Assembly (NCBI GenBank): GCA_002712285.1
Contig: PATC01000014.1
Coordinates: 10,402-66,768, forward strand
Reading direction: 5' to 3'
Source of the DNA: Methanobacteriota archaeon
GTDB lineage: Archaea; Thermoplasmatota; Poseidoniia; Poseidoniales; Thalassarchaeaceae
DNA: 56,367 bases
Of this stretch, positions 6,447 to 20,157 are shown piece by piece; positions within the stretch are counted from its first letter, which is position 1, and each line of letters begins with the position of its first letter. Position numbers and translations under genes: made by a program. The notes beneath the pieces were generated by a model. It did not search any database and was not told the origin of the DNA. It saw only the letters and a program-made list of their open reading frames with translations.

Positions 6447-6549
6447 CTTACTGAAAAGTTCTGTAGGAACAATCCAGTAAGCCGAGGGTTCCGGAATCAA
6501 TCCGGCTGGGGCCCAAAGGGCGGTAAGTTTAGTCTGATGTTCAGACTAA
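6447..6549. other. Cluster of hairpins at and downstream of the Ubl-gene stop (structured 3' region, terminator or ncRNA candidate)
   Basis: Inverted repeats: cttactg/cagtaag (6447-6481, inner gttc/gaac), ccgga/tccgg (6491-6505), gccc/gggc (6511-6521), and a perfect 9-bp ttagtctga/tcagactaa (6529-6549) that includes the stop codon. Confidence 0.4.
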
Positions 6550-6759
6550 TCCTGCGACCATATGGCGAGTCACGATAACTTCAGCATTGTCTGAGATGTC
6601 GATGTTTGCGAGGGCATCGCGACGAACCATGCGGTTGTCTACGAAGACCCAGCGCTCGCCATCCAGAGCATTGACTTCGGCACGGAGGGCATCCGCATCG
6701 AGGTTCGCTAGGACCGTGTCGCCAGTAAGGTCGTGGATCTTGAGAGTAATGTTGCTCAT
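6541..6759 (-). CDS. Small ubiquitin-like (beta-grasp, ThiS/MoaD/SAMP-like) protein, 72 aa, ending ...HMVAG-LV
   Basis: SD GGAGG lies upstream of ATG 6759. Pattern is N-terminal strand 'ITLKIHDLTGDT', helix, 'WVFVDNRMV', final strand 'AEVIVTRHMVAG', matching beta-grasp order. GC- and C-ending codon bias is visibly higher than in neighbours. E1 and JAB genes lie within 3 kb on the same strand. Confidence 0.7.
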   Translation of the reverse strand: MSNITLKIHDLTGDTVLANLDADALRAEVNALDGERWVFVDNRMVRRDALANIDISDNAEVIVTRHMVAGLV

Positions 6760-6849: not shown

Positions 6850-8061
6850 TCAAGATTCGATAACATTGGCAACTAGACGATTGATGAGACCACCGAACTT
6901 GTCAGTGACTGTATTGACTCGTTGTCTACTCACGCAGAGTGCGGAACTAATTTTTTTGAACACACGCTGACGGCCCTTGTGTTTGTTCATTCGGTCACAG
7001 AAACTAGCGGCAACAGCCCTCATGTTCTCGCCTGAGAGGCCACGATCTTTGGAAGCAACTCGCATCAATCCTCCAAGAAGTCTAGTGAGACGTCGTCCTT
7101 CTACAGAACCATGAATCCTCTCCATCGAAGGACCGACACTTTCGAGGACGGCCATAATCTCTGCTTCAGTCCACCGTGGCCGACCCATTATTTGAGCAGC
7201 ATCGAAATTCAGAATACTAGACGTTCTCTTTAGCTTCATTTCTGCACTCAGAATACTTTTGAGGTAATTCAAGATATTTTTCTTTTCAGTATGGATTACT
7301 TTCGGACTAAGACCGAATTCTTTGGCGACACGTTCAACTGAGAATGGCCTACCAAGCATTCGTGCAGCAATTGACATTGCAGCTATTGCAGCAACTGTTG
7401 CCGATTCACCCTTGTTGTTTCGAATGATAGTCTTTTGATCGCCTTCTTTTTTGGTGAGAGCTTGAAGGTGGCGGACTTGATTCAGTGGATAAGAAGGCTT
7501 TCTTCCGCCATTGTTATCCATCATTTTCTTGATGAGTGCGTAGTCAGAAGAATGCCGATTTTCTGACACAAGGTCATGGGTATCGAGTAGGATGCAATTA
7601 GCAGTATCTTTTACCGAAGGCTCTCCTGGCATTCGGGAACTTTCAATGATACGTTGTGCATTGCGTCGTAGGGTCGGACGTTCCGCCAATTCATTTCGTT
7701 GAATAGTTAACAAGCGTTTGTGGTAAGAACGTGCTGAAGGTGATGCACTACCGTTTATCGGGCCATTCCAAGTTGCATATGGACAACTACCAAGCCGATT
7801 CTTGTCACTACGTGCATAGATATCTCGACCACGATTACCAAGGTCACGGCCTATGTTTTCAATATCCGAAACACCTTGAAACACATCACAGTCGTCAAGT
7901 ACATTCGAACGAATAACAATACCATCTACGGCGCAGACGATCTCTCCACGCACTGAATCTTCGATAAATTTAGACCCGCCACATTCTGGACAGATGTCTT
8001 CATCCTTAGTGGGTGCACTCTGTTCCTCCTCATTCCAACTATCATATTGCTCCTCTACTAT
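6850..8061 (-). CDS. Divergent transcription factor B (TFB/TFIIB) paralog
   Basis: Reading upstream of the track's GTG (7953), the frame continues as 'EDICPECGGSKFIEDSVRGEIVCAVDGIVI', a TFIIB Zn ribbon with the fourth ligand Asp. Two cyclin-repeat HTH segments follow ('AIAAMSIAARMLGRPFSVERVAKEFGLSPKVI', 'KISSALCVSRQRVN'). No in-frame ATG exists before the stop at 8104-8106; ATA at 8061 sits 5 nt after SD GGAGGTG. The start position is uncertain. Confidence 0.75.
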   Translation of the reverse strand: MVEEQYDSWNEEEQSAPTKDEDICPECGGSKFIEDSVRGEIVCAVDGIVIRSNVLDDCDVFQGVSDIENIGRDLGNRGRDIYARSDKNRLGSCPYATWNGPINGSASPSARSYHKRLLTIQRNELAERPTLRRNAQRIIESSRMPGEPSVKDTANCILLDTHDLVSENRHSSDYALIKKMMDNNGGRKPSYPLNQVRHLQALTKKEGDQKTIIRNNKGESATVAAIAAMSIAARMLGRPFSVERVAKEFGLSPKVIHTEKKNILNYLKSILSAEMKLKRTSSILNFDAAQIMGRPRWTEAEIMAVLESVGPSMERIHGSVEGRRLTRLLGGLMRVASKDRGLSGENMRAVAASFCDRMNKHKGRQRVFKKISSALCVSRQRVNTVTDKFGGLINRLVANVIES

Positions 8062-8222: not shown

Positions 8223-8849
8223 TTAGAGATACTCACACATTGGGTCCCATTTTGTAATCGGATTAGTTGCCAACTGCTGATTAAAAAGGCGCTCATCATC
8301 AGTTACGTCCTCTCCAATCCAATCAGGTATGTCATATGGTCTATCTCCTTCATATTCTATTTCGGCAATCTTGAGTCCTTCATTAGCTCCTTTGAATATA
8401 TCAAACTCCCAAATGTAGCCATCCTTTGCTGGGATTTCCCATCGTATCTTTTCAATTGATGGAAATTCAGTTCTGGACAACTGTTCCTGGACCCATGAAA
8501 TATCTGTATCTGAGAGTTCCCACCCCAGTTCGATTCCTTCATCTCCTATCTTTGGACCTTTGACCTCAAGTTTAGCCTTATGCTGATTTTTAATCCTTAC
8601 ACGTATTGCTGAACCCGGCAGTTCAAGTGTCTTCTCGAGCAGGCCACTCGTTCTCCATTCTATCTGTTCCAGTGTTTCTTCCGGAACACGTTTGTCCATC
8701 AAGAAGACCCCCTCATCGATCTTAATGCTCTCTACATCAAGGTACCATTGTTGTATATGTACTCCATTAATTTCTGGAATACCATCTTCCCATGGCAGTT
8801 TTCGAATGAGATGTTTACGTTCTTTCTCAATGGGTTCTTCACCAGCCAT
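8223..8849 (-). CDS. CYTH / triphosphate tunnel metalloenzyme (CyaB/NeuTTM-like)
   Basis: N-terminal ExExK 'IEKERKHLI', then 'IQQWYL', 'IRVRIK...KLEVKG', 'WEFDIFKGANEGLKIAEIEY' and 'PDWIGEDVTDDERLFNQQLA'. SD-like GAGGGGG precedes ATG 8849. Confidence 0.9.
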   Translation of the reverse strand: MAGEEPIEKERKHLIRKLPWEDGIPEINGVHIQQWYLDVESIKIDEGVFLMDKRVPEETLEQIEWRTSGLLEKTLELPGSAIRVRIKNQHKAKLEVKGPKIGDEGIELGWELSDTDISWVQEQLSRTEFPSIEKIRWEIPAKDGYIWEFDIFKGANEGLKIAEIEYEGDRPYDIPDWIGEDVTDDERLFNQQLATNPITKWDPMCEYL

Positions 8850-8893
8850 GCACTTTTCCCCCTCTGCTTTTTTGTTTGAAGGTTCCACTTATC

Positions 8894-9133
8894 TTACGTT
8901 TGGGATTCAGACCACTGATCATGAGTTTTGATGGCCTGAGTAATATCAACCGAATAAATCCCAGCAATACGACAGGCTTCGATATGACCTAGGATTACTT
9001 CAATCAACTCATTCGTGGGCTCTCTATCCAGATGTTGTTCAATCCATTCTGCTATAGATTGGCCTAAGTTATGCTGGTCAATTGTTTCCCTAAGACGACG
9101 AACATCATCGTCTTTTGGTATTTCGATTTTCAA
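8894..9133 (-). CDS. 79-aa hypothetical helical protein, translationally coupled to the JAB gene
   Basis: TTG at 9133 overlaps the JAB stop (TTGA) and follows GGTGGAG. Protein begins MKIEIPKDDDVRRL. No family recognised. Confidence 0.65.
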   Translation of the reverse strand: MKIEIPKDDDVRRLRETIDQHNLGQSIAEWIEQHLDREPTNELIEVILGHIEACRIAGIYSVDITQAIKTHDQWSESQT

Positions 9134-9630
9134 AACTCCACCCCCGAAATCACCGGATAATATTGGATTTCTTCCTCTGTCCACATATTGAGCGGGTCTT
9201 CAAGACCATCTGGCAAGGATTCACCCATTTTCAAACGACATCTGGATCGTTTCCAATGATCATGGCCGAGGACAATTGCCACCTCAATGAGGCCAGCGAA
9301 ATTACGTAATGTAGCCCGATCGGTAAATGACCAATAAGCAGTCCAAGGATGTGTGTGAATCCATAGTCTGAAAGGTAGTACTGCTCCGATGGGGGGAGAA
9401 AGTCGTACTTCTCCTGAAGAACCAAGGTCAACGAACACCGTACCATCAGCATCTCTAATCCAGCTAACTTCGATTCCTAATGCATGACTCACATTCCATA
9501 ATTCATTCCAACGCTCTTGGATGCCAAGAATGCGTAGTGATTCGATTACCTCATCTTCCTGGTGGGCCCCATTTCTGATTTTTTGACAGAGTTGCTTCGA
9601 ATCTATTTCAGAGGTTTCTAAAACAGTCAT
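9130..9630 (-). CDS. JAB/MPN (JAMM-type) metalloprotease
   Basis: Catalytic Glu candidate 'GIEVSW' and 'WIHTHPWTAYWSFTD' (H-x-H-x6-S-x2-D, one residue shorter than the usual x7). ATGA overlap with the upstream ThiF stop. Confidence 0.8.
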   Translation of the reverse strand: MTVLETSEIDSKQLCQKIRNGAHQEDEVIESLRILGIQERWNELWNVSHALGIEVSWIRDADGTVFVDLGSSGEVRLSPPIGAVLPFRLWIHTHPWTAYWSFTDRATLRNFAGLIEVAIVLGHDHWKRSRCRLKMGESLPDGLEDPLNMWTEEEIQYYPVISGVEF

Positions 9631-10493
9631 TCTCCTACCTCCGCATTTGCATTTTCACGACTCATTAGTCGTCTTAATCGATGGAATATAGCATTCGGAC
9701 TGCGGCCTAATTTTCTTGAAATATCATCGAAATTTTTCCCACTATTTTCAAAATCATCCAAAAGTGTCAGATCATCTTTGTCGGTCCATGGTTTAGTTGC
9801 TTGCAGAGCAATATTTTTCCTTGATTGAATCGGAGTCCCAAAGATGTCAATACGCCCTCTTGAGATAGAGTCACATATTGAATCCGGGAATTCAGTTTCT
9901 TGGCCACACCTTCGGAGTAAAGAACGCATGACAGCATCTGCAAGATGAACAGCAGCATTTGCAAATCCAAATTGGATTGCGCCAGATTCGATTGCACCTT
10001 CGGGTTGACAGCTTGCTGGTAGATGTTCAGGCGTTAACGCATCTACCATTTCAGTATCCGTTCTGTCTGAGAGGAGTAATGTGAAATCTCCCATACATCT
10101 TGAGTCATACCACTCTGTATTTCTGAGAGAATGGACAATTCGACGAGGCTCAGGTCGATCAACAGCTACAATCACAATATGCGCATTCGATAGCAAATTT
10201 GAGTCCCGGAGATTGATGCTGTGAGGGATTACTTGTACAGCAGAGTGAATGACGCCTAAAGTTTCAGCGAGAGCATCGACTTTTGCCATTCCGATTTGAT
10301 TCAGGGTGAACCGTTGATGTATAAGATTCTCTTCTTCGACTTTATCGGCATCATATAGATGAAATTCTATTTCACCTAGTTGTTCAGCCAGGACACCATT
10401 CCTTAGTGCATTCACAAGCAGAATACATGTGTTTGAGCCAATACCTCCTGCTCCTATTATGCTGATGTTCAGGGGTTCAGTATTCATGGACAA
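9627..10493 (-). CDS. ThiF/MoeB/E1-like adenylating enzyme with a C-terminal Myb/SANT-like HTH
   Basis: Rossmann 'IIGAGGIGS', 'YDADKVEEENLIHQRF', 'GMAKVDALAE', 'AVDRPEPR', and candidate thioester Cys in 'PASCQ'. No CxxC Zn pairs. C-terminus is 'KPWTDKDDLTLL...FDDISRKLGRSPNAIFHRLRRL'. Start could be 10487. Confidence 0.88.
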   Translation of the reverse strand: MSMNTEPLNISIIGAGGIGSNTCILLVNALRNGVLAEQLGEIEFHLYDADKVEEENLIHQRFTLNQIGMAKVDALAETLGVIHSAVQVIPHSINLRDSNLLSNAHIVIVAVDRPEPRRIVHSLRNTEWYDSRCMGDFTLLLSDRTDTEMVDALTPEHLPASCQPEGAIESGAIQFGFANAAVHLADAVMRSLLRRCGQETEFPDSICDSISRGRIDIFGTPIQSRKNIALQATKPWTDKDDLTLLDDFENSGKNFDDISRKLGRSPNAIFHRLRRLMSRENANAEVGE

Positions 10494-10561: not shown

Positions 10562-11296
10562 ATGGACGAAGACGCCCCATTTTCTCCAGACGCTAAGGAT
10601 GCCCTGTGGCTAGTGTCTATGATTCATGAAGAAATGGATATCTGGGGTCCTCTCAAGGAATCTGCAGCAATTCAGAGATGGCGCCGTCATCCTCGTATTC
10701 TCTTACATGATAGAAACGGTCTTTTTGGTCATGCGGTTCTTGATCGGCTTGGCTCTTCAATAGAGTTGAGAACTGTTGTGCTTGATTCCCGGGTTCGGGG
10801 GCAGGGTCGTTCCCATGAGCTAGTTGAACAAGCAGTTTCAAGATGGTATCAAGATGCTCTTCTCCATCGAGTCACACCCCCGCTCGAATTATCTTCTAGG
10901 CGTCCATTGTTATCTTGGACTCGGAGTGCAGCTCTTGCTGCAACATACCATCGCGCTAGATTTTCTTTAGTGCAGCCTGAACGCCGATGGAGCCGCCTTT
11001 GGCTCTTCAAGTCCTCACTTGCAACTCTGCCTGTAAGATTGCAGATATCTGTTGCTTTGAATCGAATATTTCGTGGTATTTCCATGCTGTTTCAAGATCC
11101 TAACAGACTTCGATACCAAATCCGGCATTTGCGAGAATATCACTTATTCATTTTAGATCCAAAATCACCTATCCAGGGATTATCTCGTGCACATCCGATG
11201 TCAGAGATTACTGCCGTCACAGGTCGGCATTTAATTGACATTGAAGAGAGCCAATTACAGGCTTTTGTCGACTGGGACTCAACTGAGGAGGGATGA
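10562..11296 (+). CDS. GNAT-like acetyltransferase domain protein
   Basis: Acetyl-CoA-binding motif A-like 'ELRTVVLDSRVRGQGRSHELVEQAV'; the remainder is unrecognised. Confidence 0.6.
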   Translation: MDEDAPFSPDAKDALWLVSMIHEEMDIWGPLKESAAIQRWRRHPRILLHDRNGLFGHAVLDRLGSSIELRTVVLDSRVRGQGRSHELVEQAVSRWYQDALLHRVTPPLELSSRRPLLSWTRSAALAATYHRARFSLVQPERRWSRLWLFKSSLATLPVRLQISVALNRIFRGISMLFQDPNRLRYQIRHLREYHLFILDPKSPIQGLSRAHPMSEITAVTGRHLIDIEESQLQAFVDWDSTEEG

Positions 11297-11757
11297 TGAA
11301 CGACCCCGTCTTGCAACGTTCAATGACCGCTAATCCGTTCAAACCAATCGACATTCGCTTTGAGGTTATAATCGGCACACTTCTCGTCTTCAATACCCTT
11401 CCATTTGGCATTGGTTTTGCAGGACCATGGGAAGATGTAGGTTTTACACGCGGTATTGGTGGACTCATTGGCTGCTATTTCTTCTATCGAGCATGGTTTT
11501 TTTCCACCTTCGGATTTCATGGATTGATACCATCACTTCACCTGTGGAGTAATCCTAGTCGTTCAACTTCTCAACTCACATTGATTGGGGTGGCAACCCT
11601 TGTTTTAGGATGGGTTACTGGGGGCCCTATGGCCTTTTTGTTCGCAGAACCAACAGGCCTAATCATCACTTTATTCGGTTGCCTCATGTTGTTAGTTGCA
11701 GGTTATGCTTGGTTAGTATTTGATGGTGGATTGAAGGATTCCAATGAAGAGGAGTAA
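11293..11757 (+). CDS. Hypothetical integral membrane protein (about 4 TM)
   Basis: Four hydrophobic segments; ATGA overlap with the upstream gene. Confidence 0.7.
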   Translation: MMNDPVLQRSMTANPFKPIDIRFEVIIGTLLVFNTLPFGIGFAGPWEDVGFTRGIGGLIGCYFFYRAWFFSTFGFHGLIPSLHLWSNPSRSTSQLTLIGVATLVLGWVTGGPMAFLFAEPTGLIITLFGCLMLLVAGYAWLVFDGGLKDSNEEE

Positions 11758-12441: not shown

Positions 12442-15400
12442 ATGGAACAAATGACATTGAATCAGAAGATGAATCAGGCCAAACGCCAGACTTCAGCCCT
12501 TACATTAGTGGTGCTGATGATTATGAGTACCACACTTGCATTACTTCCCGTTACAGCCGATGATGGTGATATTGACATGGGCATTTTCGGCCCGGCGGGG
12601 GATCGCACCCCAATTCAGTCTGCTAATCAGGGCAGCCCTCAGCAAGGTAGTGCACCCGTACCTGGAGCCCTAGATCAATCACGCCTTAATCACCCTGCTC
12701 TTAGAGATCCGGCTTGGACCGACATTCTTGCTGGCACTGGAAAGGTTGGAGATATTTCAGCTCTTCAACTTCGATCAGAAGCCTACTCATTCCTTCTTGA
12801 AGAGACCAATCTTGGTGATCATGACAATGATGGCATAGGTGATCTCGACGACCTTGACGACGATAACGACGGTATCTACGATTTAATTGAGCGATTTGAC
12901 GGCTGTTTTGGTACTGATCCACTTGATCACGACAACGACGGCATCGTAGATGAGTTTGATTTTGATGATGATAATGACGGTATCCTCGAGGGGCCAATTG
13001 ATTACACACAAGGTGCAGACCCGCTGAATGTTTCTACTGATCGCTATGTCGAACCTTCGACGATTCACCCATGGACACTTACTGCAGTTGGTGTAGGATA
13101 CATGGTTGATCAGAATCCATTAGATCGTGACAATGACGGAGTGAATGATGAAGATCCAGATGGTAGTGGCCGCGAATCCTTCGATGAGGATGATGATAAC
13201 GATGGCCGCCTTGATCAATTCAAGTGGCCTTGTGACTTCGATTATGATGGAGTTCAAGACTATTTCGATGATGACGATGATAACGACGGAGTTATGGATT
13301 ATATGGATCGCGATCCATACAATTCTAGCATTACCCAGACCATGGAAGCGGCTGCTGGAGCAAGCTCATCTGACGAATTAGTCTACGATGAAGCAGTCCC
13401 CTGGACATTCAACAATTACGCATTATACTCTTTCAGTATCGATTATGTGACACTTGAATCGCAATATCATCCTAACTCTCCAGCATTCACATCGATTGTA
13501 GATGGTGACCTTGATGGTGACGGCATTCCGAACTTCCTTGATCCAGATAACGATGCAGATGATTTACCAGATTCAGCGGACACAGATGATGACAATGATG
13601 GCATTTTGGATATGTTCGATCCTGACGATGACAATGATGGAATCAAGGATGTCTGCCTTCGTATCGATACTAACGGCGATGGAAACATAGACTATCCTGG
13701 CGTTACGGGAGCACTTGAGACTCCTGGAATCGATTGCGAGATCGATTATGATAGAGATTTAGATGACGATCGTTGGCGTGCAATTGATCAGGATTACGAT
13801 CTAACTCCAGATTGGTTTGATACGGATATGGGCGGCCTTGCATCACCAGACAACGATCTCGGCCCCCCTGCTGTTAACATCAATGACGAACCCTGGGACT
13901 GGGATAATGATGGTCTTCAAAATGAAAATGATTCGTTCATGAATGCGACAGTGGCTCAAGTTGGACCTAATGGATGGAACTGTCCTACTCCAACTAATAA
14001 GAATCCAACTAACCCTGCACCTGAGTGTTTGACAGAACGAAAATCGTATGTTGGGAATAACGATTGGGATGGTGACGGTATCAACAATTGGTATGATTAC
14101 GATGACGATAACGACGGATTGCCAGATTTCCTTGACATCGATTGGAATTGCGATCTCGATGATGACAATGATCTGCATCTGATTAATGGTTCACGATTTC
14201 TCGATGATGGACCAAATTCCATTGATTCTGATATCGATGGTGACGGACTCAGCAATGATGAGGATTGGGACGATGACAATGATGGAATCAATGACCTCTA
14301 TGATCCCGATGATGGTAACTGTGGTGTTTTGGATATCGATGCTACGGATGATTTCTCTCAGCCGTACTTCCCTGTCTCTGATGGTGCCGATATCGATGGT
14401 TCTCTAGATGGTCAATTGTACAACACCAACATGTCTGACTTCTGGAACATGAGTCACACCACGAATCCATTTACGCTTGCGAATGGATTTGTTGTTCCAT
14501 ACAACGGATACAATCCCACTACGAACCCAATCACTAACGGTGCAGTGCCTGAGTTCTATTGGTACTACATCAGTCGATGGAGTCCGTGGAATGGCGACAA
14601 TCATTGGGATATTGATTCAGATGGTGACTCGCTTGTCAATGGACTTGATGTCGATCAAGACGGTGATGGTTTACCTGATGGTTGGGATCAAGACGAAGGT
14701 AATGACGGAGTTTTAGATATCGATGATTTCCGCATGGGTGGAACTGTAAATGCCGAGGATACTTGTGGATGGACTACAGTAGCCGGGTATACTTGCGGAT
14801 ATGAATACGCATTCAATTACATGCTTCCATTGGATCAAGGTACTAATTTCCAGTATTCGAAGGCATACAGTATTCGGCCTGATTCAGGATACACTGATGG
14901 ACAGTATGACGGAGCGAATAGCAATGGTAATTGGGATTGTTTCGAGGTTAGCTGTTGGCACTTCGAATTCAACGGCCAAGTAACTGCAGCCGTTACTTAC
15001 GATCAGATAGCCAATAATCGTGATTTGATGATTGCATGGCTCGGTCTAGGTCAGGGCTTATTCAATTGGAATGCAGACATCAATGGGAATTTCTTCCCAG
15101 ATGAGTACGCTGATTTGCTCAATGATAGCGTAGACCCAGACGATGATTGTGGGGCACCCAATGCAGGTACACCTAATCCACAGTGCATGTTCAATGATAC
15201 TGCGGATTTAGACGATGATTTCGATGGAATTTACGATCATTGGGATGTTGATGATGATAATGATGGAATTTGGGATTTCTTTGAGATTGATACAAACGAC
15301 GATCTTGATGATGATGCTAATACCCTACCTCCTGGCAATTTCTTTACTGGAACTAACTGCTTCGATAATGACGACGATGGTACGGATACTGATCCCGATG

Positions 15401-18400
15401 AGGATGGCTTCTTCCAAGCAGTTTGGGATAAAGGCGTGCTTGGGCAGGGTCTTATCTTCCCCGAGTACTATGATGTGGATAACGACAATGATGGAATCGT
15501 AGATACAGAGGATCCGGATGATGACAACAATGGTGTACTTGACGTCGTTCAAGAATTGACTTGTTTCATTGGTGAAGAACAGCATCCATTTGACCATGAT
15601 AATGATGGAATTCCAGATGGTAAGGGAGAGACTGATTGGGATATGGATGGTATCTCCAATACTGTTGAGCTTGCAAATCAAACCCCTTGGATTAGCCCCT
15701 GGGATCACGATAATGATGGAATTCGCGATGACCTTGATCTTGACGATGATTCAGATGGTATGCATGACGAGGACGAGATTCTTCTTTGGCCTCAACGTTA
15801 CAACAACGAGTCCACAAATCCATGGGATCACGATGATTTCGGTGGCGGACTCGGCATTGCAAACCCATCTGATCCATCGACTGGACCAGATGTTATCGAC
15901 AATGATGACGACAATGACTCGCGAATTGATGTAGATTGGGACCAGATTGAAGACAATGAGCTAAGTTCAGACTGGGATAGCGATAATGACGGAGTTCTCG
16001 ATGAGGATGACAAGATTCCAACTCGTGTCAATATGAGTATTCCTGGAACTATGTGGATGGATGGCAAGAAGGCAGCAATTTTCTCAGGTTCTGTTTCATG
16101 GCTTGACCCTGCATTGAACCAGTTCGTTCCTGCACCAAATTTGCCAGTCCAAGTGACCATAGAATGGGCTGGGAATGGTACTGAAGCAGTACAGACAATC
16201 GACGTCCTATCCTCCCAGTTTGGTGGATTTACTGTTGGACAATTCCTCCTTCCAGAAGATCTTGATGTGGGTCCAAATACAACCTACAATGCCTATGCTG
16301 AGGTCACAGAGATGTTCATCCATGATGGTAGTACCTCCGAGATGTATCCACTTGAGATTCGAGCGAATACAACCTTCGATTATGTTGCTCCAGAGTACTT
16401 ACGAAGCGGTGAAAACCCCCTATATCTCGACTTTAAGACACATTATTCTGCAGATTGGGATCGTGGAATTTTCAACAACCGAATCAAGTATGCTCCCGTT
16501 GCTTTCGATGTCTCCGGAGGACCGTTTGGTGACCGTCAGAATCCATCTACCTTCGATGGCGCTGGTCAAGGATTCCGTGCTGATTCTGGTGGATATGTTT
16601 CATTGACATTTGTCCAAAACCAAGGTGCTCAAGGTGAGTGGAAACAAGTCCGTTACAATGCATCTCTCAACAACGGACCAGGTACAATCCCCGGTGGTTA
16701 CGAGGAAATCATTTGGAATGGCTTCCTGAATGACCATGATGTTGTGGGTACTTACGTGTACACGAATACTACTCTTCCCAAGGGCAATTACGAGTTCAAC
16801 GGCGAGGTCAATATGTCCTATGCCGGTCCTAATGAGTGGCCCTTCCCCTGGCTAGAAGGAGATGAAACCGATGCATTCGTAATCAAATCAGTAGAGCGTA
16901 TGTTCATTGGTTCACGAATTATCGTCCCTTCACACAATCCAGTATTCTTCTGGGATTCACAGCAGTTTACAGGAGCATATTTCGGTGCTTGGCGCCCAAT
17001 GTTTAGTGAAGCCGGATTGGTTAATGCTGGTTATGATACGGACATGAACAATCAGATTTCACCCTCAGAATTTGCAGCTGTATCTTCGGGTCGCCAATAT
17101 GCAGTTCTTTGGAATGACAACCCTGCAGATCTGCCACTTGGTGATGCATCAGCAAACATCGATTCCCCATTACGTGACTTCGTGACTACGAACAGTACTC
17201 ACTGGTTTGTTTCGATGGTCAATGGAGCAGATTCGAATGTGCCACCTTGTGGGCCAGTAGACCCATTAGATCAGAATAGTCCAGTCCGTTGTGAGATTGT
17301 TCCAGAAATGAATACAGGTGAGACATTTGGAACAGTTGGCGATGTGAAGAATCGTACCTTGGTTCCATGGACTGACGGTGCTACAGTTCTCCAGGTAGAT
17401 TTAGATCAAGACAGTGTATTTGCTGGCAGCCGTGAGAGCGTGAATCCAAAATATCCAGCTCTATCTGGAGGCCTTGCGGTTATGGATTTCAACTGGACAT
17501 GGCGTACTGAATATCAGGCTTTGACCTATGGAGTAAAGGTTGACTTTGTAGATTCCAACTTCTTCTTCACGGGTAATCAGACTTACACGCTTTCGCCTAC
17601 CGGTGCTCACGTGAATGTTTCAGTGGTTGGAACAACGGATTTCCAATTGAATACAGTACCTGTACTCTATCGTGGAATGAATACCACACTTGAAGCGCGT
17701 TTGATTGACAACTCGTTACAACCGGTTCCCTTCCAGCCAGTGAATTGGACCTGGTCTGCGAATGGCACATCAGGTCTCGCACAGACTGATGTGAATGGTG
17801 TCTTCAAGATACCATTGAACATTAGCAAAAGCCACGATCTCGGAAATTTCTCAATGACGTTTGGCTTCCCTGGGACACAGCGTCTGAAGAGTTCGAGTGT
17901 AACTCAAGCGCTTTGGGTCGTTAGCAGGACTTTCATCAATCTTGAAGCAACGACTTCAGGGGAACGATCCAGTGGCGATGTATGGTCAGTATCAGCTCAA
18001 GTTACTGATGATAATCGAACGCCATCAATTCGTGATCTTGGACAAGCTCTTGACGGCATTGGTGAAAATGGTGGACGAGTGTTACTAATCTTTGAAGGAA
18101 CGGATTTTGATAATCGGCAGCATAGACGTATCATTACAGAATTGACGCCCAATGCAGGCTCAGTTTACCACGAGATGCTGTTGAATCCCCAGTTACTGAA
18201 GGATGATCCAGAATCATTCCTACCGGATGGCTTTGGACCAGTCAATGTAATTCTTCGATTTGAGGAGAATTTACCTCATGAGGGATGCGTCGCTCTTGAA
18301 GAATGGATGCTTTCGATGCAAGGCGCATGGGACCCATGTACATCGATTCCTAACAACGAGCATTTCCGACGTGAACTGCAGTACAATGTTGACGGCTTCT

Positions 18401-20157
18401 ATCTTCGTGGTCGAACTACATTGGATGTTGATGATCAGATTGTTTACACGAGTGAAGTTAACCCAGTTACGGGCGAGGTTGTCGAAAAGCCGATGACTGT
18501 CACAGGTCGTTTGACTGATGAACTTGGAGGAAACTTGTCCAACCGTGATATTCAGATTAGTTATCAGATGACTGGATCAGCAGCCGATGTACCACAATGT
18601 GAAGCTGGACGTACAGATCAAGAAGGGTACTTTGAGATTGATTGCCCATTGAATGGTGTTTTCGCAGGTCAAGCGCAGGTTACTGTTCGATATAATGCGG
18701 ATTTGAACAATGACGGCTATCGTTTCAAGGATGCTACCGTAATCAAGAATTTCGCAGTTTTCTCAAACAGCACTCTGAATATCGAAGAGGTTGGACCATT
18801 CCTTACTGATGTTGACCGGTATGTCTTCGCTGGTAATGGGACCAGTATTCCAGTTCTCTATCTCAAGGAACCATTCCATGTCCATGCCGCACTCTCCCAG
18901 AGTAATGGGAATATGCTTGGTGGACGTTGTCTGAATATCTATCTCAGTCCTGAAATCAACCCACGACCAATCGCATCTGCAGTTACAGATGATGCAGATG
19001 GCCGTATTGAGTGGTATTCAGGAGATCCTGAACAGAACCCAAGTCGTCGAGGTGTTGAACCGATCGGCGGACAAGGTCTCGAAGGATTCCGTACTCTTCG
19101 TGTTGCATACGAGCCTAAGATGGAAGTCAGTGGAGGCTGTGGACAGGAAGCAAACGCTGTAGTCAATGGTTCACACATGGACATCACGGTACTCGTACGC
19201 AGCCGTGTTGACATCATCCTGAAGGATACTTGGTCTAAGGCGGACGGGTACCAACCAGATGAATGGGTAAACGGTACTGTTCAAGTCATGCGTGATCGGC
19301 TCGATGTACCGGTTTCTGGTGAACAAGTAATGTTCATTCGCGAGTACTGGAATGGTACTGATTGGGTGCTTGAGAACATCGATTACCAGACAACACTCGA
19401 CAATGGAGAAGCCTCCTTCGCTTGGCAGTACACTGCTGAGGATGTAGCCGGTAGTGACGAAACTGCAGTGGGTGGTAAGTGGCGTATACTTGTGCAGTTC
19501 AGGGATTCCCCTCTCTTTGAGCAGACATTCCTCAATAATACACCAGAGATTGTCCTTGGAGATGAGCCAATGGCTGAACAGACAAGTGGTTTGTTCACTG
19601 CCCAGGTCATGCTTCCACTACTGATTGCCCTACTTCTTGCAGCAGTGATTGGTGCTGTGATGTACCGTAACTATCAGGAACGTCGGCGAATTGAGATTCT
19701 CCGAGGAATCCTGACAGATTCTCTAATGTCATTACGTGCCTCTAACGAGTATATTCAAGCAATTTTCGATTGTTGGAAGCAACTAGTTTCGTTCTTCCGA
19801 AGTAAGGGTGCGATGAAGAAGGTCTACGAAACCACACGTGAGTTTGAGGACGCAGTTAATCGTATGCTTGGAGGTATTACACCACCTCACGAGTTGGATG
19901 CATTCCTCAGCCTCTTCGAGGAAGCACGTTATTCTGATCACGAAATCGGTGCAGCTCAGCGCGACCGTGCAATCCAAACTTTGCAGGCAGTGGTGAATAG
20001 CCTCACTCTTGCACTCGGCGAGACTCAACTTGCGAGAGCTGTTGATGAAGGTAGTCGATACGAGAATCTGACTAAGGCCGGAGAATTCGTTGATGCAGAT
20101 GGTCAACTACGCCAAGCTGGTCTTGGTGAGGATGGCGCAGATAATTTCTCTCTGTGA
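12442..20157 (+). CDS. Giant cell-surface protein: TSP3-like DxDxDG Ca-binding repeats, beta-sandwich stalk, TM helix, cytoplasmic DUF4129-like domain
   Basis: Signal-like N-terminus and dozens of D-x-D-N/G-D-G-x-x-D motifs over about the first 1190 aa. Ig-like beta-rich middle, TM 'VMLPLLIALLLAAVIGAVMY', then 'ETTREFEDAV...ELDAFLSLFEEARYSDHEIG' typical of DUF4129. Confidence 0.85.
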   Translation: MEQMTLNQKMNQAKRQTSALTLVVLMIMSTTLALLPVTADDGDIDMGIFGPAGDRTPIQSANQGSPQQGSAPVPGALDQSRLNHPALRDPAWTDILAGTGKVGDISALQLRSEAYSFLLEETNLGDHDNDGIGDLDDLDDDNDGIYDLIERFDGCFGTDPLDHDNDGIVDEFDFDDDNDGILEGPIDYTQGADPLNVSTDRYVEPSTIHPWTLTAVGVGYMVDQNPLDRDNDGVNDEDPDGSGRESFDEDDDNDGRLDQFKWPCDFDYDGVQDYFDDDDDNDGVMDYMDRDPYNSSITQTMEAAAGASSSDELVYDEAVPWTFNNYALYSFSIDYVTLESQYHPNSPAFTSIVDGDLDGDGIPNFLDPDNDADDLPDSADTDDDNDGILDMFDPDDDNDGIKDVCLRIDTNGDGNIDYPGVTGALETPGIDCEIDYDRDLDDDRWRAIDQDYDLTPDWFDTDMGGLASPDNDLGPPAVNINDEPWDWDNDGLQNENDSFMNATVAQVGPNGWNCPTPTNKNPTNPAPECLTERKSYVGNNDWDGDGINNWYDYDDDNDGLPDFLDIDWNCDLDDDNDLHLINGSRFLDDGPNSIDSDIDGDGLSNDEDWDDDNDGINDLYDPDDGNCGVLDIDATDDFSQPYFPVSDGADIDGSLDGQLYNTNMSDFWNMSHTTNPFTLANGFVVPYNGYNPTTNPITNGAVPEFYWYYISRWSPWNGDNHWDIDSDGDSLVNGLDVDQDGDGLPDGWDQDEGNDGVLDIDDFRMGGTVNAEDTCGWTTVAGYTCGYEYAFNYMLPLDQGTNFQYSKAYSIRPDSGYTDGQYDGANSNGNWDCFEVSCWHFEFNGQVTAAVTYDQIANNRDLMIAWLGLGQGLFNWNADINGNFFPDEYADLLNDSVDPDDDCGAPNAGTPNPQCMFNDTADLDDDFDGIYDHWDVDDDNDGIWDFFEIDTNDDLDDDANTLPPGNFFTGTNCFDNDDDGTDTDPDEDGFFQAVWDKGVLGQGLIFPEYYDVDNDNDGIVDTEDPDDDNNGVLDVVQELTCFIGEEQHPFDHDNDGIPDGKGETDWDMDGISNTVELANQTPWISPWDHDNDGIRDDLDLDDDSDGMHDEDEILLWPQRYNNESTNPWDHDDFGGGLGIANPSDPSTGPDVIDNDDDNDSRIDVDWDQIEDNELSSDWDSDNDGVLDEDDKIPTRVNMSIPGTMWMDGKKAAIFSGSVSWLDPALNQFVPAPNLPVQVTIEWAGNGTEAVQTIDVLSSQFGGFTVGQFLLPEDLDVGPNTTYNAYAEVTEMFIHDGSTSEMYPLEIRANTTFDYVAPEYLRSGENPLYLDFKTHYSADWDRGIFNNRIKYAPVAFDVSGGPFGDRQNPSTFDGAGQGFRADSGGYVSLTFVQNQGAQGEWKQVRYNASLNNGPGTIPGGYEEIIWNGFLNDHDVVGTYVYTNTTLPKGNYEFNGEVNMSYAGPNEWPFPWLEGDETDAFVIKSVERMFIGSRIIVPSHNPVFFWDSQQFTGAYFGAWRPMFSEAGLVNAGYDTDMNNQISPSEFAAVSSGRQYAVLWNDNPADLPLGDASANIDSPLRDFVTTNSTHWFVSMVNGADSNVPPCGPVDPLDQNSPVRCEIVPEMNTGETFGTVGDVKNRTLVPWTDGATVLQVDLDQDSVFAGSRESVNPKYPALSGGLAVMDFNWTWRTEYQALTYGVKVDFVDSNFFFTGNQTYTLSPTGAHVNVSVVGTTDFQLNTVPVLYRGMNTTLEARLIDNSLQPVPFQPVNWTWSANGTSGLAQTDVNGVFKIPLNISKSHDLGNFSMTFGFPGTQRLKSSSVTQALWVVSRTFINLEATTSGERSSGDVWSVSAQVTDDNRTPSIRDLGQALDGIGENGGRVLLIFEGTDFDNRQHRRIITELTPNAGSVYHEMLLNPQLLKDDPESFLPDGFGPVNVILRFEENLPHEGCVALEEWMLSMQGAWDPCTSIPNNEHFRRELQYNVDGFYLRGRTTLDVDDQIVYTSEVNPVTGEVVEKPMTVTGRLTDELGGNLSNRDIQISYQMTGSAADVPQCEAGRTDQEGYFEIDCPLNGVFAGQAQVTVRYNADLNNDGYRFKDATVIKNFAVFSNSTLNIEEVGPFLTDVDRYVFAGNGTSIPVLYLKEPFHVHAALSQSNGNMLGGRCLNIYLSPEINPRPIASAVTDDADGRIEWYSGDPEQNPSRRGVEPIGGQGLEGFRTLRVAYEPKMEVSGGCGQEANAVVNGSHMDITVLVRSRVDIILKDTWSKADGYQPDEWVNGTVQVMRDRLDVPVSGEQVMFIREYWNGTDWVLENIDYQTTLDNGEASFAWQYTAEDVAGSDETAVGGKWRILVQFRDSPLFEQTFLNNTPEIVLGDEPMAEQTSGLFTAQVMLPLLIALLLAAVIGAVMYRNYQERRRIEILRGILTDSLMSLRASNEYIQAIFDCWKQLVSFFRSKGAMKKVYETTREFEDAVNRMLGGITPPHELDAFLSLFEEARYSDHEIGAAQRDRAIQTLQAVVNSLTLALGETQLARAVDEGSRYENLTKAGEFVDADGQLRQAGLGEDGADNFSL

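Follow-up and report, generated by a model that had tools for sequence, protein, structure and literature searches.

A ubiquitin-like-protein-activating enzyme with a Myb/SANT-like tail in a conserved gene cassette of Poseidoniales

Does an archaeal enzyme that activates ubiquitin-like proteins (Ubls) carry its own Myb/SANT-like helix-turn-helix (HTH) domain, and what might such a domain do there? The question is raised by a gene on the reverse strand of a 56,367-nucleotide stretch of DNA, called the window here, from an archaeon of the Thalassarchaeaceae (GenBank assembly GCA_002712285.1, contig PATC01000014.1, positions 10,402 to 66,768). The source is a 74%-complete metagenome-assembled genome (1.7 Mb). 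The original prediction, made from the sequence alone, had read the gene as an activating enzyme (E1) of the ThiF family fused to a Myb-type HTH, tethered to DNA or regulating its own operon. With very high confidence, the open reading frame (ORF) is one genuine two-domain protein, made of a minimal E1, a linker and a Myb-like domain. Our overall explanation, a Ubl-activating E1 whose Myb tail most likely binds nucleic acid, is given a probability of about 0.5.

Translation of the window reproduces the predicted ORF, motifs and coordinates, including the codon of the candidate cysteine, Cys162, at 10008-10010. The gene and the parts of its product are as follows:

9627..10493, reverse strand: E1-Myb gene, 288 amino acids (aa) from TTG at 10493, probably 286 aa from ATG at 10487
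9849..10469, reverse strand: ThiF/E1 adenylation domain, residues ~9-215 (Pfam, AlphaFold2, Foldseek)
10008..10010, reverse strand: Cys162 of the S-C-Q motif, in the loop after helix 147-152, invariant in 55 sequences
9795..9848, reverse strand: flexible linker, ~18 residues (~216-233), variable in length and sequence among orthologs
9630..9794, reverse strand: Myb/SANT-like three-helix domain, residues 234-286 (Pfam, AlphaFold2, profile against the PDB)

Since the starts of the orthologs correspond to 10487, the true start is probably the ATG at that position, 6 bases inside the end given in the first line; database copies of the protein also have 286 aa and begin there. GAGGIGS occupies residues 14-20, PASCQ residues 159-163 and the stretch KPWTDKDD...HRLRRL residues 234-276 (nucleotides 9666-9794). 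The stop codon overlaps the start of the following gene (ATGA).

A fusion seen in a draft assembly could also be an artifact, with misassembly or a frameshift joining two separate genes. This explanation, to which we assign next to no weight, is refuted by recurrence: separately assembled data from many samples show the same unbroken frame, as do at least 13 distinct sequences that share 36-85% identity.

In Pfam, ThiF (PF00899) scores 52.5 bits against a cut-off of 28.1 and covers residues 9-195, and the loop cysteine is invariant; both support the earlier reading of a complete ThiF domain with a candidate cysteine. The AlphaFold2 model, built on an alignment of 55 sequences, has a mean predicted local distance difference test score (pLDDT) of 88; the core is mostly above 90 and is confidently folded to about residue 215. 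Foldseek with this model retrieves UBA5, ThiF, PaaA, MccB, Cap2 and UBA3 (E 2.5e-11 to 6e-9, probability 1.00). The core motifs are GAGGIGS, D48/D50, NLIHQR, K71 and D112-R-P-E-P-R117. Among the 55 sequences, G14, G16, G17, D50, N56, Q60, K71, D112, R117, S161, C162 and Q163 are invariant, and D48 and R61 nearly so. In alignment, the ATP- and Mg-binding residues correspond to the ligands of nucleotide and Mg in the canonical E1 encoded in the same genome; the sole change is His59 in place of the Arg of NLxRQ, with Arg61 two residues further on. From its conservation and position, Cys162 is a candidate thioester or persulfide cysteine.

Which kind of E1 is it? Most archaeal E1s have a C-terminal Zn/TBP-like domain (Makarova & Koonin 2010). 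The core described here does not have this domain of MoeB and ThiF; it ends at about residue 215 and contains no CxxC pairs. The UbaA model NF047750 scores 17.9 bits against a cut-off of 450, and the enzyme is not of the UbaA type. The top NCBIfam matches are short ThiF models (PRK08644 at 68.5 bits, thiF_fam2), all far under their cut-offs. PADLOC models of E1-E2 proteins (Cap2) align only through their E1 part, with query residues 9-125, and BilD matches at E 0.027; a PADLOC search with the neighboring proteins gave no match for any of them. A PRTRC cassette was considered and rejected because both matches that suggest one (PRTRC_ThiF at 43 bits against 144.75, and RepB/ParB at E 0.03 on a zinc-ribbon protein of the cluster described below) are far under the cut-offs and other PRTRC genes are absent.

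Past the core, pLDDT falls below 50 at residues 220-232, where the ortholog alignment also has indels. The tail is then modeled as three helices (residues 238-250, 255-262 and 266-286, with block-mean pLDDT of ~76-89). The Myb family PF00249, with a cut-off of 24.4 bits, scores 25.0 bits in the whole protein (E 2e-5). With the tail alone, a check proposed in the original prediction, it scores 28.7-29.0 bits (E 1.5e-6), so that even the lower value of 28.7 lies above the cut-off. The match spans profile positions 2-45 of 46; its score is marginal for the window's own member, and orthologous tails reach E 5e-9. The Myb/SANT-like HTH fused C-terminally to an E1 is thus supported both by a family match above cut-off and by the three modeled helices, the second and third of which make up the HTH. 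Lower Pfam matches of the tail are to other Myb models and to the generic HTH families HTH_24, HTH_38 and Sigma70_r4_2. When a profile of 14 diverse tails is used instead of one sequence, the best PDB sequences are c-Myb R3, B-Myb and CEF1 (E 1.6e-5), and the tail segment 'GRSpgAI' aligns with 'GRTDNAI(K)' of c-Myb R3. The tail is the sole Myb match above cut-off in the 1.7-Mb genome.

Orthologous E1s carry the tail as well, as had been proposed for checking: at least 13 distinct loci or proteins, 36-85% identical, retain it, and the W, LL, RS, A and RL positions are invariant or nearly so. In the presumptive recognition helix, R-S-x-x-A-I-[FW]-[HR]-R-[LF], R32 and A36 are invariant, and S33, R40 and L41 are nearly invariant. 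Like c-Myb R3, SANT and TRF-type single-Myb domains, the tail combines W-[ST]-x-[ED]-[ED]-x-x-L ... G-R-[ST]-x-N-A-I with three helices. It differs from c-Myb in being a single repeat, archaeal and attached to an enzyme, with F and L in place of the second and third Trp and with variable charge. A word-based search with the tail region alone returned only near-identical proteins and is uninformative on other lineages.

How widespread is the fusion? The survey comprises 80 recovered genomic loci, all from Poseidoniales (Marine Group II). Homologs of the E1 have four architectures. One is the E1 core only (200-230 aa); another is the E1 with the Myb-like tail (286-310 aa). In the next, the E1 is fused in frame to a JAMM-like protein (391-404 aa; P0055, P0058, P0065, and L072:2318-3490 with 391 aa), with the motif HTHPxDAYWSxTD near residue 324. 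In the last, two tandem Ubl-like repeats are N-terminal to the E1 (371-425 aa; P0047, P0050, P0051); each repeat ends in LVGG or LIGG, and the whole resembles a polyubiquitin-like precursor joined to its own activating enzyme.

The tail is confined to part of Thalassarchaeaceae, and ~60 other loci are without it; the tail is an addition made within part of that family. In the E1 tree it marks a 12-row clade (100/99 support) and the separate rows L003 and L029, which requires at least two gains or losses. As the tails are mutually homologous, a single gain followed by losses is the simplest reading. The set of genes around the E1, called the cassette below, is seen only in Poseidoniales, mostly with tail-less E1s; it occurs in nearly all sampled Poseidoniaceae and in about half of Thalassarchaeaceae. 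The chromosomal neighborhood of the cassette is syntenic (enolase, aminotransferase, GcvH, RNase H) and is not an obvious defense island. A viral origin was also considered and rejected: E1s in IMG/VR are only distant (25-33% identity, none reaching the tail), and IMG/VR contains no relative of the JAMM-like protein.

In order from the E1, and all on the same strand, the genes that follow it are:

9130..9630, reverse strand: JAMM-like protein, 166 aa, translationally coupled to the E1 (motif, weak profiles, fusions in relatives)
8894..9136, reverse strand: ~80-aa helical protein, M-x-I-R-x-P-K-D-D-E...G..., third gene of the core cassette
8223..8888, reverse strand: CYTH/triphosphate-tunnel metalloenzyme, NeuTTM-like, start codon uncertain (family profile)
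6850..8061, reverse strand: TFIIB-type zinc-ribbon protein, N-terminal ribbon and ~350-aa uncharacterized remainder
6541..6759, reverse strand: candidate Ubl precursor, 72 aa, C-terminal ...HMVAG-LV (homologous repeats fused to E1)

The ends of the first four genes (E1, 166-aa, ~80-aa and CYTH) overlap or nearly touch. ATGA overlaps together with GGAG(GT), at 9627-9640 and 9130-9145 and in many other loci, indicate tight translational coupling of the first three; the last tail codons (EVGE) hold the Shine-Dalgarno-like GGAG of the downstream gene. The C-terminal endings 'EVGE', 'EVNA' and 'GGDE' of E1 and JAMM-like proteins were considered as self-modification sites, an idea rejected because the codons involved double as the GGAG(GT) ribosome-binding sequence and ATGA overlap of the gene that follows. 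By tblastn, the E1 and 166-aa genes are adjacent in ~76 of 80 Poseidoniales loci, and ORF inspection places the ~80-aa gene directly downstream of the JAMM-like gene in nearly all inspected loci. Only the two main tail-bearing sister clades have the CYTH, TFIIB-ribbon and 72-aa genes in the locus, and there all nine adequately flanked loci (window included) have them; jointly they occur in none of the ~60 tail-less loci.

For the 166-aa protein, we keep the label 'JAMM-like' rather than a firm JAMM assignment, as its model (pLDDT 82) has no fold match in the PDB by Foldseek (best E 0.46). An alignment of 15 sequences, reaching down to 30% identity, shows no variation at E54, H92-x-H94, S101 and D104 (HTHPWTAYWSFTD); compared with the JAMM motif, the spacing from HxH to S is shorter by one residue. 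The modeled secondary structure follows the MPN order: helix, strand starting at the Glu, hairpin, strand ending at HxH, and helix starting at SxxD. A sequence profile against the PDB reaches AMSH-LP across the motif (E 0.025), and in hhalign against an alignment of canonical archaeal JAMM proteins the probability is 92.5% (E 4.9e-7) and the Glu is out of register. There is no Pfam match, and PF14464 does not retrieve the protein from the genome at E<=10. In BFVD, the only confident fold matches are viral A0A516M0E0 and A0A516LHY2 (182 and 167 aa; E 2e-7 and 8e-7; 20-21% identity), and other matches, to RadC-JAB, deubiquitinase and metalloprotease entries, are weak. Pattern scans of IMG/VR found no sequence relative. 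As a separate observation, a 252-aa protein with HTHPNAVAIPSSAD at G000:C9:6192-6335 (L087:1174-1929) scores 19.8 bits with Prok-JAB, below cut-off; with relatives of 249-252 aa in L098-L100, it represents another divergent JAMM family in these archaea.

The 72-aa candidate Ubl has no Pfam match. Its C-termini in the tail-bearing clades are VAG-LV, VAG-RV and VAG-RA; homologs just upstream of tail-less E1s end in VGG-SQ, TGG-F and VGG-L. Aligned by hhalign with the canonical MoaD/ThiS of the clade, it gives a weak match (E 0.006, probability 6%) in which the C-terminal Gly is in register. The Ubl-Ubl-E1 fusions make its partnership with the E1 hard to doubt, and together with the E1-JAMM-like fusions they tie the E1, the JAMM-like protein and the Ubl together as core parts. 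We consider the assignment of the cassette to a Ubl system likely, with good confidence.

The ~80-aa protein has no Pfam match, a PDB sequence profile finds nothing for it at E<=10, and an initial likeness to ribbon-helix-helix proteins was unsupported and dropped. PADLOC and NCBIfam gave nothing useful for the 166-aa, ~80-aa and Ubl proteins. The CYTH protein is identified through its family profile, which finds the NeuTTM-type tripolyphosphatases 3typ and 2fbl (E 5e-17); as a single sequence it scores 18.1 bits, below the Pfam cut-off of 23.2. Only profile positions 75-186 align, which points to an insertion of ~40 aa relative to 3typ and 2fbl.

The TFIIB-ribbon protein matches 1pft (E 7e-8) through the ribbon only and reaches 25.1 bits with PF08271, below the cut-off of 29; searches of Pfam and of PDB sequences found no cyclin or TFIIB core match. 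The original prediction had called it a TFB paralog and a possible target. The zinc ribbon does match that of TFB and the protein may be a partner or target; the cyclin core expected of a paralog was not detected, and because two tail-bearing lineages do not have the protein, it is not a required partner. The start of its gene is unusual. The ribbon (CPECGG...), at 7954-8061 on the reverse strand, precedes the first canonical start (GTG 7953), and no in-frame ATG, GTG or TTG lies upstream of it back to the stop codons. An ATA is found 5 nucleotides after GGAGGTG, where the orthologs in L008 and L010 have ATG. This ATA may itself serve as the start, or it may reflect a sequencing error or a recent mutation.

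The cassette is a second system, as the genomes also hold a canonical E1 and, almost always, a canonical ThiS/MoaD, and the cassette is located away from both. A canonical E1 is found in all 41 sampled Poseidoniales genomes (212-280 bits) and ThiS/MoaD in 25 of 26. In the window's own genome these genes are:

G000:C40:38794-39933 (L118:495-1634): canonical MoeB/MoeZ-type E1, 379 aa, with a rhodanese-like C-terminal region
G000:C24:36269-36484: canonical MoaD/ThiS ending in ...PPVSGG, on a separate contig

Among described systems, SAMP/UbaA/HvJAMM1 of Haloferax volcanii resembles the cassette in its components, which are an archaeal Ubl, an E1 of the ThiF family and a JAMM protease, and in having no E2. 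It differs in several ways: the cassette E1 is without the Zn/TBP-like domain, adjoins the protease gene and has the Myb-like tail; the cassette Ubl would need trimming (AG plus 2 residues); and a separate canonical E1 and Ubl are retained in the genomes. The closest fold match, 5iaa (E 2.5e-11), belongs to UBA5-UFM1, which shares a short E1, a Cys inside the adenylation domain and a C-terminal extension past a flexible linker. Like the cassette Ubl, UFM1 has two residues after its C-terminal Gly; it ends in Val-Gly and these two, which a protease removes. Identity to UBA5 is ~19%, however, and where the cassette E1 has a folded HTH, the UBA5 extension is made up of short linear motifs for binding UFM1 and UFC1; the cassette has no UFC1-like E2. 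The operon logic (E1, JAB protease and Ubl) is that of prokaryotic Ubl-E1-JAB triads, of Cap2/Cap3 in cyclic-oligonucleotide-based antiphage signaling systems, and of Bil. There is no E2 domain, CD-NTase or BilB in the cassette, and since no E2 is found and the PADLOC matches cover the E1 part only, it is not a Cap2/Cap3 or Bil system.

Ubl-E1 and JAB-E1 fusions are known in archaea (Makarova & Koonin 2010). Surveys of E1 architectures (Iyer, Burroughs & Aravind 2006; Makarova & Koonin 2010) list Ubl-E1, JAB-E1, E1-TBP-like and Cys-rich-tail forms, and no HTH or Myb. A full-text literature search, which did not extend to domain-architecture databases, found nothing joining Poseidoniales with ThiF, or ThiF with Myb in archaea. 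The original prediction had been aware of no described E1-Myb fusion, and the literature on E1-Myb or E1-HTH yielded none. The system falls within the broad class of prokaryotic Ubl-E1-JAB cassettes, and for the E1-Myb fusion no published description was found.

With these parts, a working scheme can be outlined. The JAMM-like protease would trim the one or two residues after the C-terminal Gly of the Ubl and, in relatives, may also cut the tandem Ubl-Ubl-E1 fusions. The E1 would adenylate the exposed Gly and probably take the Ubl onto Cys162 as a thioester. With no visible E2, the Ubl might be transferred straight to lysines of its targets, in the manner of archaeal SAMPylation, or else to a sulfur acceptor. 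The tail would bind nucleic acid, presumably DNA. Since ThiF- and UBA5-type cores are dimeric, the E1 homodimer could display two tails, each a Myb domain, in the way that TRF-type single-Myb proteins do. Through a DNA-bound tail, Ubl activation would take place at particular DNA sites close to the transcription machinery. The enzyme may instead feed back on its own promoter in the fashion of BirA, an adenylate-forming, dimerizing enzyme with an HTH in which catalytic state is coupled to promoter binding. BirA is an analog and not a relative: its fold is unrelated (class II aminoacyl-tRNA-synthetase-like), its winged helix is N-terminal and it is bacterial.

How far does the evidence favor DNA binding by the tail? 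This is the least secure part of the scheme, and its chances are about even. In favor, the conserved face of the tail is a basic helix 3 with an R-S N-cap and [HR]-R-L, and the gain of the TFIIB-ribbon, CYTH and Ubl genes in two clades suggests a link to transcription. An archaeal precedent is the basal transcription factor TBP2 of Haloferax, a known target of Ubl modification (PMC4895103). A more specific version, in which the tail brings the dimeric E1 to promoter DNA and the Ubl is conjugated there to the TFIIB-ribbon protein or to transcription machinery that it contacts, is considerably less probable, and we put it forward as speculation.

Several observations count against the explanation that we favor. 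Of the Myb tryptophans, the first is invariant, F, L or V stands at the second position and L or F at the third; Myb-like and SANT domains often show such substitutions. Among orthologs the tail's net charge spans -6 to +5, and helix 1 is strongly acidic, as in SANT domains. In the c-Myb-DNA structure the base-reading residues of R3 are K, N, N and S; the corresponding positions of the tail hold F, H, R and R. A motif scan of the three intergenic regions of the cluster and its orthologs yielded no conserved operator-like repeat, only the TATA-like elements TTTAAATACCC and GATATACCC and 7-mers at chance level. The tail-bearing lineages L003/L017 and L029 are without a full-length TFIIB-ribbon homolog in the locus or the genome, and the co-occurrence of tail and TFB ribbon reflects essentially one evolutionary event. 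Finally, the identities of the JAMM-like protein and the Ubl are based on motifs, weak profiles and fusions, and neither has a Pfam or PDB fold match.

A rival reading takes the tail as a SANT-type module that recruits proteins and does not bind nucleic acid. Its partners might be the Ubl, the ~80-aa protein, the TFIIB-ribbon protein or an E2-like factor, comparable to the ubiquitin-fold domain (UFD) of E1s or the C-terminal peptide of UBA5 that contains the UFM1-interacting sequence (UIS) and binds UFC1, both of which recruit partners in trans. The window's own clade has acidic or neutral tails (net charge -6 to +1, isoelectric point (pI) 4.6-8.2), a long disordered linker precedes the tail, and the Myb base-contact residues are not conserved. 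UBA5, the best fold match of the core, uses its C-terminal extension to recruit UFM1 and the E2, and a cluster without an E2 would need some recruiting device. By analogy with that C-terminus, docking on a flexible linker is a serious rival. What keeps it less probable than nucleic-acid binding, in our estimate, is that the conserved face is the basic third helix, the element with which Myb and other HTH domains contact DNA; that the secondary Pfam matches noted above are all to DNA-binding HTH families (HTH_24, HTH_38, Sigma70_r4_2); and that tails of the L002-type clade are basic (pI 8-10.9).

The other rival dispenses with conjugation altogether. The E1 would serve sulfur transfer, as with ThiS/MoaD, or the modification of a peptide C-terminus, as in MccB and PaaA, and the tail would make it a BirA-like, self-repressing 'trigger enzyme'. 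The best NCBIfam matches are indeed short ThiF models (PRK08644, thiF_fam2), but all are far under their cut-offs. MccB and PaaA are among the fold matches, E2 and E3 are both absent, and the CYTH phosphohydrolase in the operon hints at nucleotide or polyphosphate chemistry; yet the cassette includes no rhodanese, no RRE or peptide-clamp domain and no biosynthetic gene, and sulfur transfer is already covered by the canonical MoeZ-type rhodanese E1 with MoaD/ThiS. The JAMM-like protease, the Ubl with a masked Gly and the tandem Ubl-E1 fusions are hallmarks of a conjugation system. We thus regard this rival as improbable, clearly more so than partner docking, and retain the Ubl-activating E1 with a tail that most likely binds nucleic acid as the preferred explanation.

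An E1 normally owes its specificity to the Ubl and to partners of the E2 and E3 kinds. If the preferred explanation is true, an E1 that itself carries a DNA-binding-type domain would be a new way of localizing Ubl activation; action at promoters would make it an archaeal, E2-less counterpart of DNA- or chromatin-targeted ubiquitylation in which the activating enzyme itself reads DNA, and would join TBP2 of Haloferax, so far the only known case in which a Ubl controls a basal transcription factor of archaea. If instead the tail is a mere partner-docking module, the finding is a case of ordinary domain accretion, which is common on enzymes. The cassette itself is an undescribed second Ubl system of Poseidoniales, which are still uncultured and count among the most abundant planktonic archaea in ocean surface waters. 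The natural fusions (Ubl-Ubl-E1, E1-JAMM-like and E1-Myb) hint at interaction partners, and all parts of the cassette are small soluble proteins amenable to in vitro work.

Other features of the window lie on the forward strand, beyond the start of the E1 gene. A divergent 244-aa protein (10562-11296, forward strand) has weak GNAT/ArsN2-like matches, and its homolog in L003 a weak match to Acetyltransf_7. Next to it is a 154-aa membrane protein (11293-11757, forward strand). Across Thalassarchaeaceae both stay in synteny with the cassette of the E1; the order differs in L003, where the gene for the membrane protein comes after the cassette. Further along, a 2571-aa protein (12442-20157, forward strand) contains dozens of D-x-D-x-D-G repeats (thrombospondin-type-3-like, Ca-binding) and a beta-rich region, with a single transmembrane segment near the C-terminus followed by a cytoplasmic helical tail.

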